Below, one piece after another: positions 17,249-64,000 of a stretch of 64,000 bases of DNA (the first letter of the stretch is position 1; each line of letters begins with the position of its first letter). The notes beneath the pieces were generated by a model, which did no database searches, was not told the origin of the DNA, and saw only the letters and a list, made by a program, of their open reading frames with translations. The position numbers and the translations under genes are program-made. Origin of the DNA: a plasmid; the NCBI RefSeq assembly GCF_054482525.1, contig NZ_JBTHVG010000004.1. One strand, written 5' to 3'.

Positions 17249-17419
17249 ATAAAAGGATTGTTGCAGATACGAAAGTCGTTAGAATAGCCGCGGACGCTTG
17301 AGGCTGTATGCCGAAAGCGTTTTGTGGATGGTATACAGCAGAAAGCCCCCTGGAGATTTTTTATCAATCAACCAGGGGCTCTACTGTAATGCCTAGACAA
17401 CATTATAGTAGCCTGATAA
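17249..17419 (+). repeat. Duplicated, truncated copy of the pnd promoter/leader
   Basis: 171 bp matching 18670-18840, with 8 substitutions and two 1-nt indels by hand alignment. It includes TTGTTG-16 bp-TAGAAT (17258-17285) and the first 10 pndC-like codons, then diverges. Confidence 0.85.
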
Positions 17420-17461
17420 TTTAGATATGTGTACATCCTACCGGAAAAGATACTTTTCAGG

Positions 17462-18553
17462 TCATTTATCAATGGGTGTTATTACCACCGGTAGTTTGTT
17501 TACGTCTTCTAAATTAACTGGTACCGGAGGTAACCATATTAATCTAGGTTTACGCTCATGGGCTAGTTCTGGTTTCTTACTTCCTGTCCAGTATGTATGC
17601 CAGTGTCCCCGGCGTATATGAGGACGTTTGCTACCTATTGTTGTCCGCTCTTTCCCTGTGGGTTCTGCTTGGCGATATTGCCGTATGGCTTGCCCCATTC
17701 GAATACCAACGTCCCACTCCCGAATGTTTTGTGCTGGTAGTTCATGGTGAGTGTGAACATGCTTTTTGTGCTTTTCTGACCGTTTAAATTGATTTTTTTC
17801 TTTTATATCATTGATCTGTGAACAGATATAAAGCACCATTGATATCTGTGCGTTAAGAAGATTAAACTCCCTGTCTCTGAAATCTTTGAGCTTTTCGTTA
17901 ACTGTTACGACGACTTCACCATCGATACACTCCATCTTTCTGGAGTCAAGAAGTCCTTCACGAGAGTCCTTTATTCTGATGATATTATTGACGACGTCAA
18001 CATCCTTTTCTTTTAGCCCTGTAGTTCCTTGACTTTGTTTCAGATCATCAATAATGAAAAGCCGGATAATATTTCCATTATTGTCCAAAAATGGATAAAA
18101 GAAAAATCCATGTATCGGATAGGACGTAGGAAGTATAGTATGCAGATTTTCGGCTGAAACATAGATACTCCATGAAGGGAGTTCCTTGAGGATCTGTGCA
18201 GGAATGTTATCAACATAGGTGTTAGCCACATCACTGATGATGTCCTCGCTTAGGCGATAAATTTTCTTTGTATAGCGCCAGTATATAAAACACAAAATAC
18301 TGTGTGGTGACGATAATTCGTTTCCATGAAATAAAGATTCTAGTTTAGAAGCCAGTTCTTCATTTTTTTGTTGGCTCTGGAGACGACTCATTAGTATGCG
18401 TTCTTCATCTTTTCTGTCGATAAATAATAATGGATTGTCGCTGCGTTTTTTATTTCGGCATGCAAAGATTTGCTCTTCAAGCCCAGGGATTGTGTTGATG
18501 ACTTTTTTTATCTTTTTCAGGAAAATAGGTTGTTTTAACTGCGACATTTCCAT
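17462..18553 (-). CDS. Orphan AT-rich protein (363 aa), unknown function
   Basis: Long ORF in a visibly AT-rich insert between the two pnd-leader copies. The C-terminus is basic and His-rich, with the motif RPHIRRGHWHTYWTG. No family recognised. Confidence 0.7.
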   Translation of the reverse strand: MEMSQLKQPIFLKKIKKVINTIPGLEEQIFACRNKKRSDNPLLFIDRKDEERILMSRLQSQQKNEELASKLESLFHGNELSSPHSILCFIYWRYTKKIYRLSEDIISDVANTYVDNIPAQILKELPSWSIYVSAENLHTILPTSYPIHGFFFYPFLDNNGNIIRLFIIDDLKQSQGTTGLKEKDVDVVNNIIRIKDSREGLLDSRKMECIDGEVVVTVNEKLKDFRDREFNLLNAQISMVLYICSQINDIKEKNQFKRSEKHKKHVHTHHELPAQNIREWDVGIRMGQAIRQYRQAEPTGKERTTIGSKRPHIRRGHWHTYWTGSKKPELAHERKPRLIWLPPVPVNLEDVNKLPVVITPIDK

Positions 18554-18669: not shown

Positions 18670-18840
18670 ATAAAAGGATTGTTACAGATACGAAAGTCGT
18701 TAGAATAGCTGCGGGCGCTTGAGGCTGTATGCCGAAAGCGTTTTGTGGACGGTATACAGCAGAAAGCCCCTGGAGATTTTTTTATCAATCAACCAAGGGC
18801 TCTACTGTAATGCCTCAACAACATTATAGTAGCCCGATAA
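18670..18840 (+). repeat. pnd promoter/leader (intact copy)
   Basis: The partner of 17249-17419. It continues into pndC and pndA. Confidence 0.85.
18760..18820 (-). ncRNA. pndB: PndB (Sok-like) antisense RNA, approximate limits
   Basis: Minus-strand TTGCCT-17 bp-TACTAT (-10 at 18826-18831), antisense to the pndC start. A terminator-like stem (agcccttgg/ccaggggct) lies downstream. The limits are inferred by analogy with hok/sok. Confidence 0.5.
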
Positions 18841-19013
18841 CCGCCGGAAGGCAATGGAGGGGCTATGATGCCACAGCGAACGTTTTTAATGATGTTAATC
18901 GTCGTCTGTGTGACGATTCTGTGTTTTGTCTGGATGGTGAGGGATTCGCTTTGCGGACTCCGGCTCCAGCAGGGAAACACAGTGCTTGTGGCAACGTTAG
19001 CCTACGAAGTTAA
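18810..19013 (+). CDS. pndC: PndC (Mok-like overlapping reading frame)
   Basis: The ATG at 18810 opens a frame that overlaps pndA, as in hok/mok-type loci. Confidence 0.6.
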   Translation: MPQQHYSSPITAGRQWRGYDATANVFNDVNRRLCDDSVFCLDGEGFALRTPAPAGKHSACGNVSLRS

Positions 19014-19020
19014 ACGTTAA
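18868..19020 (+). CDS. pndA: PndA, Hok-family type I toxin (50 aa)
   Basis: MPQRTFLMMLIVVCVTILCFVWMVRDSLCGLRLQQGNTVLVATLAYEVKR is recognised as PndA/Hok family. It is too short to appear in the ORF track. Confidence 0.9.
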   Translation: MPQRTFLMMLIVVCVTILCFVWMVRDSLCGLRLQQGNTVLVATLAYEVKR

Positions 19021-19091: not shown

Positions 19092-19343
19092 TCAATGAAG
19101 CGTATCTGGTATTGTTTCATTTTCCCTGAAGCCGATTAGCTCCAGCCGAATGCCTTTGCCATCGGGGGCCACGTTCTGCATTTCGCAGATACCACGTCGG
19201 GTCATGAGTGTGAAGGCTGTCATTGCCAGCATGGCTAACGCGTTTTCCTCGCTTCCGCTGCGTTTCTCGAGAGCATCGGCAATTTCTTCTATGCTCCCCA
19301 CCTGAAAGCAAGAGTCGAATTCTTTACTCCACTTTTCTGACAT
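19092..19343 (-). CDS. Hypothetical protein (83 aa)
   Basis: ORF with moderate coding appearance. No recognised domain. Confidence 0.5.
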   Translation of the reverse strand: MSEKWSKEFDSCFQVGSIEEIADALEKRSGSEENALAMLAMTAFTLMTRRGICEMQNVAPDGKGIRLELIGFRENETIPDTLH

Positions 19344-19496
19344 CGGATTTTCTCTCTGTATTTATGGGTAGTTATCGAACTGAATGTGCCAGTTTTTTCA
19401 GGAGACGGCAAAGTTGAGATGATTGGTTCTGATTCAAAGCATGAGTTTCCCCGGTGTGACGGGCATGTCGGGCGGATTTTGAGAAACAACAGATGT

Positions 19497-19527
19497 AAAA
19501 AAACCGACTGGTGAGGTCGGTTTTTTT
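19497..19527. terminator. Bidirectional rho-independent terminator
   Basis: aaaaaaa-ccgac-tggtgag-gtcgg-ttttttt. It has a U-tract when read on either strand. Confidence 0.85.
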
Positions 19528-19583
19528 ACTGTTCCGTTACAGAGTGGGTGGCTCTGGTCGGAAAAGAACTGTCTATAACTGAC
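19497..19583 (-). ncRNA. Predicted AgrB/IstR-like antitoxin sRNA (~85 nt)
   Basis: A minus-strand promoter (TTGCAG 19618-19613, 17-bp spacer, TACTAT 19595-19590) places the transcription start near 19583. The first 32 nt are complementary to 19740-19771 (31 Watson-Crick pairs plus 1 G-U). It ends at the terminator at 19497-19527. Confidence 0.6.
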
Positions 19584-19739
19584 TTGTAGATAGTACGTCT
19601 GGAATTATATTTCTGCAAGTACTGGATAAGTGTATACTCGGCATGTCAGCTCTGAGGCATGTTCTGTCCGACATATTGTTCAGCGGGAAGAACAGGTTGC
19701 AAGTCCTGGCCAAAACATCAGGTGGTGCTGGTTTTGGTG

Positions 19740-19771
19740 CTCTGGTCGGAGAAGAACTGTCTATAACTGAC
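19740..19771 (+). promoter_or_regulatory. Predicted sRNA target box in the toxin mRNA leader
   Basis: Direct repeat of 19552-19583 (31/32 identical), 73 nt upstream of the small ORF's ATG. Confidence 0.6.
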
Positions 19772-19843
19772 ACTATAGAAACCGTTGTGACAGGCAGTGT
19801 AAGAGCGAACAACGGGGTTCTTTCTCCAGTGATGGAGAAGCGG

Positions 19844-19939
19844 ATGATTAATCTGTTAATCATCGTTCTCAGGGCAGTAGTTGCCGTTGCAAACGCGCTG
19901 ATTGCTGTTCTGGAACTGATCCGGGAACTTATCGACTGA
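19844..19939 (+). CDS. Predicted DinQ/TisB-like type I toxin peptide (31 aa)
   Basis: MINLLIIVLRAVVAVANALIAVLELIRELID. GGAG lies 6 nt upstream and can pair with ctcc at 19824-19827. The peptide is a single amphipathic helix with polar residues at 7-residue spacing, and it resembles the DinQ and TisB sequences as I recall them. Confidence 0.6.
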   Translation: MINLLIIVLRAVVAVANALIAVLELIRELID

Positions 19940-19958
19940 TAAGCCTGGAAACGTAACT

Positions 19959-19988
19959 AAGGGCAGGGAGTTACCGCTTCCTGCCCTT
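19959..19988. terminator. Hairpin between convergent small genes
   Basis: aagggcagg (19959-19967) pairs perfectly with cctgccctt (19980-19988). There is no clear T-tract. Confidence 0.45.
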
Positions 19989-20003
19989 TAACAAAAAGAG
20001 ATC

Positions 20004-20180
20004 TCACGTTAAAAATTTGTACCCTTCTTTAACTTCCAGTGCCTGCTCCTTTGACTCAAACATCAGTCTTGTTTTCCCGGGAACACCCCATGAAATGTAT
20101 TCAACATCTATCCACCATTTTCCATATTCTTCATATGGCTCGGATATTACTTTTTTGACAAAGGCGTCTACCAGATTCAT
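20004..20180 (-). CDS. Small hypothetical protein (58 aa)
   Basis: The internal ATG at 20180 is preceded by aaaaaggaaaaaac. The sequence is MNLVDAFVKKVISEPYEEYGKWWIDVEY..., soluble and Trp-rich. The track's longer form (94 aa) lacks a Shine-Dalgarno sequence. Confidence 0.45.
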   Translation of the reverse strand: MNLVDAFVKKVISEPYEEYGKWWIDVEYISWGVPGKTRLMFESKEQALEVKEGYKFLT

Positions 20181-62913: not shown

Positions 62914-63232
62914 CTAAAAACGCTATCACTGAGTTCCTACGCTCATTGGTGATAGCCCAGACGGGGGTAGGAATACCGGCGTCATCGGAAACCGGCCAGG
63001 CTAATGCCTGCCCCGCCTGAGCTACCATAGATGACGACAAGAAATACAAGTTCCTGTCTTTATGGTATGGCAAAAAACGACGCCAAATGAAGAAATTAAC
63101 TTCTGCGCCGACGATGACTACGCGGGTTCCTACGCCCGATCACAGTTTTGCCTGTGACCAGTAAAGGGTACTTAGTATAACGCACCGAGTCAACTAACAG
63201 CTTAAAAAACATACAAAAAAGCGTCAAAACTT

Positions 63233-63700: not shown

Positions 63701-63892
63701 GTTGTAATGCTTTTCAAATTAACGTAAAGCGGGTATATTTCGGCTGTTATTAGCTGTGCAGAGGGTGGCACTCTGTGGAGCAAAGCGGCGAAAGTCGGAC
63801 GGCAGAATGCGCCATAAGGCATTCAGGAGAGATGGCATGTACGGGCAGTAAGTCAGAAGACTGAAGATGTTCCGGAAGCCATAAAAGGAAAA

Positions 63893-63943
63893 CCCCCACT
63901 ATCTTTCTTACGAACTTGGCGGAACGACGAAAGATAGTGGGGG
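63893..63943 (-). terminator. Strong hairpin terminator (candidate CIS terminator of the rep operon)
   Basis: Perfect 15-bp stem, cccccactatctttc / gaaagatagtggggg. In minus sense it is followed by ttttcctttt. Confidence 0.6.
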
Positions 63944-64000
63944 CCTCACAGAATACGGGTAAAGTATAATGAAACCGTACCAGAGATTCAACCCTGTGCA

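Follow-up and report, generated by a model that had tools for sequence, protein, structure and literature searches.

The region 19495-19992 of a 64,000-nt stretch of plasmid DNA (contig NZ_JBTHVG010000004.1; hereafter the window) was identified, with a probability of roughly 93%, as a complete agrB-dqlB type I toxin-antitoxin (TA) module of an IncI1-type (repZ) plasmid, located between pnd and excA. The identification is based on matches to the NCBIfam DqlB and Rfam AgrB profiles, homology to dinQ of E. coli K-12, co-variation of two pairing boxes and selection on the toxin open reading frame (ORF). Together with the sequence elements, the family membership and the direction of a structural switch in the mRNA, these were established in the present analysis, and the module is a plasmid branch of the dinQ-agrB family. 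An earlier reading of the letters alone (the sequence-only reading) had proposed a small toxin with a divergent antisense RNA at this place. This biological interpretation was supported by the profiles, homology, co-variation and selection, and all the sequence features it listed were found where it had placed them or no more than one base away. A complete type I module, comprising ORF, Shine-Dalgarno (SD) trap, antisense box, small RNA (sRNA) and terminators, was thereby correctly reconstructed from raw sequence.

The toxin ORF, dqlB, lies on the plus strand at 19844-19939 (ATG 19844, TGA 19937-19939). Its 31 codons plus stop could be read directly from the DNA as proposed, and encode MINLLIIVLRAVVAVANALIAVLELIRELID. 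Against the NCBIfam model NF041473 (DinQ-like type I toxin DqlB), the peptide scored 67.8 bits (cut-off 35), with residues 1-31 placed on profile positions 1-31. Against the DinQ-specific model NF041472 it reached 20.3 bits, below the cut-off of 30, with residues 18-29 alone aligned, and a Pfam search of the peptide returned nothing significant. The polar residues noticed at positions 3, 10, 17 and 24 were confirmed, and position 31 is polar too. The proposed ribosome-binding site, GGAG at 19834-19837, was likewise confirmed upstream of the ATG, and all 14 further plasmid modules that were compared preserve both this core and the distance separating it from the ATG. Across 13 homologous modules, the ratio of non-synonymous to synonymous differences (pN/pS), pooled from sequence pairs that are not independent of each other, was 0.15 in the 31-codon frame, versus 0.88 and 5.4 in the other two frames. 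The peptide is kept across divergent incompatibility (Inc) groups at 72-85% DNA identity. Purifying selection on the 31-codon ORF as a translated unit is thus supported by sequence comparison.

The antitoxin gene, an agrB-like sRNA gene of about 87-89 nt, was found on the minus strand at 19495-19583, as judged from an Rfam match and the predicted fold. Rfam RF02891 (AgrB) matched 19495-19582 over the full model (1-84) at 53.7 bits against a gathering score of 40, and this was the single AgrB match in the whole 64-kb window. The predicted minus-strand sRNA of about 85 nt agrees with Rfam AgrB end to end. In its layout, a 5' targeting region of 33 nt is followed by an internal stem-loop and then by a terminator hairpin. 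The predicted fold of AgrB has a free energy of -28.8 kcal/mol (z = -6.4 versus shuffles) and leaves the 5' tail free. The perfect bidirectional terminator that had been claimed at 19497-19527 proved to extend over 19495-19529. It is a Rho-independent terminator readable on both strands, with a perfect 14-bp stem (arms 19495-19508 and 19516-19529), a 7-nt loop and flanking A and T runs, and was called both by the terminator scan and as an inverted repeat. The dqlB mRNA would end at a second hairpin on the plus strand (19959-19988; an inverted repeat with 12-nt arms followed by TTT), which is homologous to the hairpin ending K-12 dinQ. The T run after this hairpin is too short for a call by the terminator scan.

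Two copies of one box connect AgrB to the dqlB mRNA. The upstream copy (19551-19583) gives, as its reverse complement on the minus strand, the 5' 33 nt of AgrB, which pair with the dqlB leader. The leader copy (19739-19771, plus strand), the predicted AgrB binding site, lies at +95 to +127 of the mRNA, 72 nt upstream of the ATG, and contains an anti-anti-SD, GGAGAAGAAC. The direct repeat in the sequence-only reading is thus present in the proposed orientation, with the correction that it spans 33 nt with 32 of 33 positions identical, not 32 nt with 31 of 32. Its single A/G difference does give a U.G wobble in the sRNA-mRNA duplex, the remaining 32 positions forming Watson-Crick pairs. No further box copy was found in the 64-kb window, and 100 shuffles produced 0 chance matches.

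The box pair was present in all 15 homologous modules examined, the leader copy ending 69-77 nt upstream of the ATG. Co-conservation and co-variation of the two boxes in homologous plasmids, which had been suggested as a check, were found: the boxes change sequence together. Identity in the variable 20 nt of the box was 93% within a locus and 55% between loci, and cognate duplexes averaged -56 kcal/mol, non-cognate ones -35 kcal/mol. Co-variation was judged on the 3' 20 nt and on duplex energies, because an ungapped in-register comparison of the full 33 nt under-counts identity where the 5' half has apparent 1-nt register shifts. The window allele has its own box class. Its cognate duplex of AgrB and leader was predicted at -63.5 kcal/mol, versus -22 to -38 kcal/mol with other box classes, that of chromosomal dinQ included.

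The sequence-only reading had further held that the module was unannotated and undescribed on IncI1 plasmids. Neither claim survived: the module is already known, IncI1 plasmids included. In 100%-identical plasmids, the PGAP/RefSeq annotation places a coding sequence named 'dqlB: DinQ-like type I toxin DqlB' (WP_000609148.1) at exactly the position of the 31-codon ORF, 19844-19939. The region was matched in 1,007 of 5,426 complete E. coli genomes; among 12 listed records, 11 carry a dqlB annotation at the matching place. The dql (dinQ-like) genes, dqlB among them, were defined in 2016 on chromosomes and natural plasmids of Enterobacteriaceae, together with their promoters, terminators, SD sequences and conserved elements of the 5' untranslated region (UTR) (Kristiansen et al., PMC5066626). 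The agrB-dqlB module of pOXA-48 (IncL) was described in 2025: DqlB is toxic, agrB rescues, and loss of the plasmid leads to killing; a census in the same study found dqlB on 67.4% of IncI1 plasmids (PMC12365149). The IncX3 module of pOXA-484, also reported in 2025, is toxic, is neutralised and stabilises its plasmid (PMC12317039), and the dqlB of pTF2, which we take to be that study's IncI1 plasmid, is discussed in PMC12211044. The matching places in complete E. coli genomes numbered 1,087, of which 21 were chromosomal and may represent integrated plasmids or chromosomal dql genes. The AgrB-like RNA (19495-19583, minus strand), although it passes the Rfam gathering score, was absent from the features annotated in the sampled RefSeq E. 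coli plasmid records; that the agrB RNA is unlisted while dqlB is listed is an annotation gap.

One aspect that might go beyond the cited literature is an exchange of the recognition core. The window was compared with a second IncI-gamma/K1 locus (NZ_CP055101.1, 847-1142), and the two were only 38-68% identical over 19545-19838, while the flanks, the 3' half of AgrB (19495-19544) and the ORF (19839-19938) were 98-100% identical. Made up of the 5' end of AgrB, the promoters of both genes and the complete dqlB leader, the variable core measures about 290 nt, and a switch in one box is accompanied by a switch in the other. The pattern over 19545-19838 looks like exchange or diversification of antitoxin specificity. 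An IncK2/Z plasmid (L002, NZ_AP022817.1) carries two tandem agrB-dqlB modules of different box classes (58-559 and 799-1243). Predicted cross-pairing between them is asymmetric, at -23 versus -48 kcal/mol depending on direction, with cognate values of -52 and -58 kcal/mol. It is possible, though on balance doubtful, that the core is an exchangeable 'specificity cassette', whose classes are diversified by selection so that competing or co-resident plasmids cannot neutralise each other's toxin. If true, this would amount to addiction 'immunity types' shaping plasmid competition. We met no statement of this idea in PMC5066626, PMC12365149, PMC12317039 or PMC12211044, and no search was aimed at it.

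Alongside the boxes, the mRNA contains the elements of a structural switch. The predicted full-length dqlB mRNA (19645-19992, plus strand, about 348 nt; dinQ +1 mRNA, 331 nt, PMC5066626) has a 5' end placed by homology and a 3' end given by the terminator. Its fold was predicted at -138.4 kcal/mol (z = -6.7 versus shuffles). In the minimum-free-energy fold, the first 28 nt (19645-19672) form a 5' lock (compare 'sequence 1', a/a', of dinQ), pairing with 19745-19771 and burying the AgrB target, a model that follows PMC5066626. The same fold contains the anti-SD element (19817-19828) and an SD hairpin: the anti-SD pairing of the sequence-only reading exists and extends to a 7-bp hairpin (19822-19828/19833-19839, loop GUGA) that takes in the SD GGAG at 19834-19837. 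In the consensus fold calculated from 14 leaders, by contrast, the anti-SD segment is the partner of the box's 5' half (GGAG.AAGA.AC); alignment columns 10-21 pair with anti-SD columns 85-95, and several of these pairs survive two-sided changes. Taken together, the two predicted folds reproduce the mutually exclusive pairings 1:2, 2:3 and 3:4 of dinQ (PMC5066626). For dinQ, an inert +1 mRNA has been described whose SD opens once 44 nt are removed; AgrB, by binding the box, closes the SD again and generates a site for RNase III (PMC5066626). In silico, the probability of the SD being unpaired was 0.0 in the full-length fold, that of its first G was 0.10-0.46 across eight 5' truncations, and with the box forced single-stranded, mimicking AgrB binding, the SD value returned to 0.0. 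For a switch of the +1/+44 type, this modelling result is consistent in direction and not decisive.

Transcription starts, 5' processing, RNase III cleavage, toxicity, relative RNA stabilities and the role in plasmid stability are taken from homologues (PMC5066626, PMC12365149, PMC12317039), and the module would by analogy work as follows. Back-to-back promoters in 19591-19638 would produce AgrB of about 87 nt from the minus strand and, from near 19645, the dqlB mRNA of about 348 nt from the plus strand. The full-length mRNA would be translationally inert, since its first 28 nt would hold the leader box (19745-19771), leaving the anti-SD (19822-19828) free to close the hairpin on the SD (19833-19839). 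Removal of the 5' end, as in the dinQ +1/+44 conversion, would free the box, so that its GGAGAAGAAC segment could compete for the anti-SD and open the SD. Binding of the AgrB 5' 33 nt to the box through 32 Watson-Crick pairs and one G.U pair would then re-close the SD hairpin and make an RNase III substrate. Once the plasmid is lost, AgrB would no longer be replenished, and the stable mRNA would yield the 31-residue membrane helix that kills or arrests the cell (post-segregational killing).

The putative promoters were located as follows. The agrB promoter would occupy 19591-19619 on the minus strand (-35 TTGCAG 19619-19614, 17-nt spacer, -10 TACTAT 19596-19591), with a start near 19583. A by-eye alignment to K-12 dinQ suggests TATACT (19633-19638, plus strand) as the -10 element of dqlB, and TATAAT-like elements stand at the equivalent place in homologues with an alignable promoter region. 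Since the published numbering of dinQ (agrB site G88-A119, SD G184-G187; PMC5066626) fixes its +1, that of the window was placed at G19645, 7 nt after TATACT.

Several observations weigh against the assignment of this region as a working agrB-dqlB module. The experiments on toxicity, rescue and stability come from the IncL and IncX3 homologues, not from the IncI1 allele. The minus-strand promoter of the sequence-only reading does have the arrangement TTGCAG-17-TACTAT, and the word 'good' applied to it was an overstatement: by our own count its hexamers fit the sigma-70 consensus at 7 of 12 positions. When 19300-20100 was scanned for consensus promoters, those of agrB and dqlB were both missed, and both therefore depend on homology and positional conservation. 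Better support for the agrB promoter comes from two other observations: most of the homologous loci shown have, in our own reading, a TTGCA-type -35 and a TAnnAT-type -10 at a fixed distance, and the Rfam AgrB model starts at 19582. In the predicted folds, 5' truncation opened the SD only partially, and the minimum-free-energy fold retained the SD hairpin in all forms. Moreover, the proposed mechanism leaves unaccounted for the role of a predicted perfect 9-bp hairpin over the start codon (19843-19864; GAUGAUUAA-UCUG-UUAAUCAUC). A similar hairpin can be drawn by inspection at the K-12 dinQ start, and such a structure is a possible extra layer of translational control.

We considered whether the module might, like chromosomal dinQ, encode an SOS-induced toxin of stress or DNA damage under LexA rather than serve in plasmid addiction, which we regard as very unlikely. 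Its homologue dinQ is LexA-repressed (PMC5066626), and a CTG-N10-CAG motif is present at 19706-19721 (TCCTGGCCAAAACATCAGGT), which by our own comparison matches, on the opposite strand, the candidate SOS box (heterology index (HI) 11.64) listed for the dqlB of pTF2 (PMC12211044). However, this motif is found some 62 nt into the leader of the mRNA, within a predicted RNA stem, and is probably a by-product of the RNA structure. In the promoter interval, CTG-N10-CAG was found neither in the window nor in any of the 13 plasmid modules, whereas K-12 dinQ has one; at the place homologous to the dinQ LexA box (19620-19639), only a 13/20 vestige is left, the CAG half being lost. In addition, DqlB was undetected in the proteome analysis of pTF2 (PMC12211044), and plasmid homologues act as addiction modules (PMC12365149, PMC12317039). 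The plasmid context and the absence of a promoter LexA box from the plasmid modules suggest that the module is expressed constitutively and acts by post-segregational killing, and that it is not induced by the SOS response.

The wide distribution of the region was also examined. A BLAST search of PLSDB returned 1,938 plasmid records at the sensitivity of megablast and at least 5,000 at that of blastn, the matching plasmids being nearly all conjugative and enterobacterial. Hundreds of these plasmids are at least 99% identical across the region, as would be expected if the module were an inactive remnant, kept merely because the IncI backbone is young and clonal; their identity alone therefore says little about function. 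We consider a remnant hardly credible, given the pN/pS of 0.15 for the peptide across Inc groups at 72-85% DNA identity, the maintenance of SD, AgrB fold and box pairing with coordinated changes, and the essentially perfect state of both boxes in the window. Among 14 compared loci, from IncI-gamma/K1, IncK2/Z, IncF, IncX3/4/5/1, IncHI2 and IncL/M plasmids, Rfam AgrB matches stood divergently upstream of dqlB in 11, which shows co-conservation of AgrB with the toxin gene. The three IncL/M loci gave no match to the AgrB model (E <= 0.1), agrB there being too divergent.

That the real gene is instead the 98-codon ORF at 19643-19939, or a 35-codon version starting MEKRM... from 19832, encoding an ordinary small protein with incidental repeats, has a negligible probability: the window and one IncK2/Z module (L002b) do have the 98-codon frame open, and past annotations gave many Dql peptides longer N termini (Kristiansen et al., PMC5066626), but in 12 of 14 further plasmid modules a stop interrupts the frame 1-22 codons before the ATG, IncI plasmids with ORFs of 98-100% identity are only 38-68% identical in the segment upstream of the ATG, the conserved SD and its spacing fit the 31-codon start, and NF041473 covers residues 1-31 exactly. 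Conservation of the 98-codon ORF had been named beforehand as an observation that would speak against the toxin; it was checked, and the ORF is not conserved in homologues. Both longer ORFs were rejected for this lack of conservation in their upstream extension.

The sequence-only reading had placed the module next to the classical pnd locus, and this neighbour was confirmed by an Rfam sok match (18713-18870) and a Hok-family ORF (18865-19020). The pnd locus (18713-19020) lies about 800 nt from dqlB on the same strand. IncI1 plasmids are major carriers of extended-spectrum beta-lactamase (ESBL) and AmpC resistance genes, and a second addiction module beside pnd therefore matters for plasmid-curing strategies. 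The relevance of agrB-dqlB to plasmid curing is a point previously made for pOXA-48 and IncX3. About 1.3 kb upstream of the 18713-18870 match, a second Rfam sok match was found at 17292-17449 (plus strand; 84.6 bits, gathering score 59), just past the 3' end of a 363-residue minus-strand ORF (17462-18553), and may be a second or remnant hok/sok-type module. Elsewhere in the window, a C4 antisense RNA matched 62945-63032 (minus strand, 77.5 bits), and the repZ regulatory pseudoknot matched 63885-64000 (plus strand, 144.9 bits), cut by the window end; the latter indicates the IncI1-type replicon.

Among known systems, the closest are the agrB-dqlB modules of pOXA-48 (IncL) and pOXA-484 (IncX3). 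They belong to the same NCBIfam family and encode 31-residue peptides, which by our own count share 25 of 31 (pOXA-48) and 26 of 31 (IncX3) residues with the peptide of the window. The divergent layout, a box ending 69-77 nt from the ATG and the GGAG core with its spacing are common to all three modules, each of which is on a conjugative enterobacterial plasmid. Different from the window, the two pOXA modules have an entirely different box class, with cross-duplexes of -22 to -29 kcal/mol versus -63.5 kcal/mol for the cognate duplex. The agrB of IncL/M plasmids fails the Rfam AgrB model (E <= 0.1), whereas that of the window passes the gathering score, and the module lies between repA and trbC in pOXA-48 but between pnd and excA in the window.

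The chromosomal relative is dinQ-agrB/agrA of E. coli K-12 (Weel-Sneve 2013, as cited in PMC5066626). By-eye alignment showed nucleotide homology to K-12 dinQ-agrA-agrB in the leader, the box position, the SD hairpin, the ORF and the terminator. The homologous blocks comprise the mRNA 5' end (GCTCTGAGGCAT...), the box (GCTCTGG.CGGAG...), the GTGACAGGCAGTG block and the anti-SD/SD hairpin, followed in the coding part by the ORF start (ATGATTAAT... versus GTGATTGAT...), the CTGGAACTGATCCG core and then the terminator. The same four-element switch can be drawn for the window, and the Rfam AgrB model is built on the K-12 RNA. Window DqlB has 31 residues and starts with ATG, whereas K-12 DinQ has 27 and starts with GTG; the two share 16 identical residues and differ by an insertion of 7 residues (two turns). 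The DinQ sequence quoted in the sequence-only reading was correct apart from this GTG start. Moreover, the window has one agr gene (a single AgrB match and two box copies) and no promoter LexA box (CTG-N10-CAG), while K-12 has both agrA and agrB and dinQ has such a box. In the plasmid-borne context, addiction rather than an SOS function is therefore the likely role.

A likeness to tisB-istR-1, shoB-ohsC and zorO-orzO had also been pointed out. The architecture is indeed common to them, with divergent genes and 5' UTR pairing distant from the SD (PMC5066626), and in these systems the primary mRNA is inert and is activated through 5' processing (PMC5066626), as proposed here for dqlB. The SD of dinQ is thought to open by a structural switch, not through a standby site (PMC5066626). 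In sequence, membership was found neither for TisB/IstR nor for Zor/Orz. The TisB family in NCBIfam and Pfam and IstR in Rfam gave nothing up to E = 10, in searches whose HMMER speed filters can drop very weak matches; membership of TisB/IstR was rejected on these profile scores, and the comparison is an analogy. Zor/Orz was rejected because OrzO-P reached 33.8 bits against a gathering score of 60 and aligned mainly through the terminator hairpin.

The neighbouring pnd, a classical plasmid addiction module of the hok-sok kind, resembles dqlB in being a type I TA system with a small membrane toxin, but its toxin is from an unrelated family (Hok/Gef, 51 residues). In pnd, the antisense RNA overlaps in cis and activation follows 3' processing of a fold-back structure (PMC5066626), whereas dqlB is paired with a trans-encoded divergent sRNA and would be activated by 5' processing.

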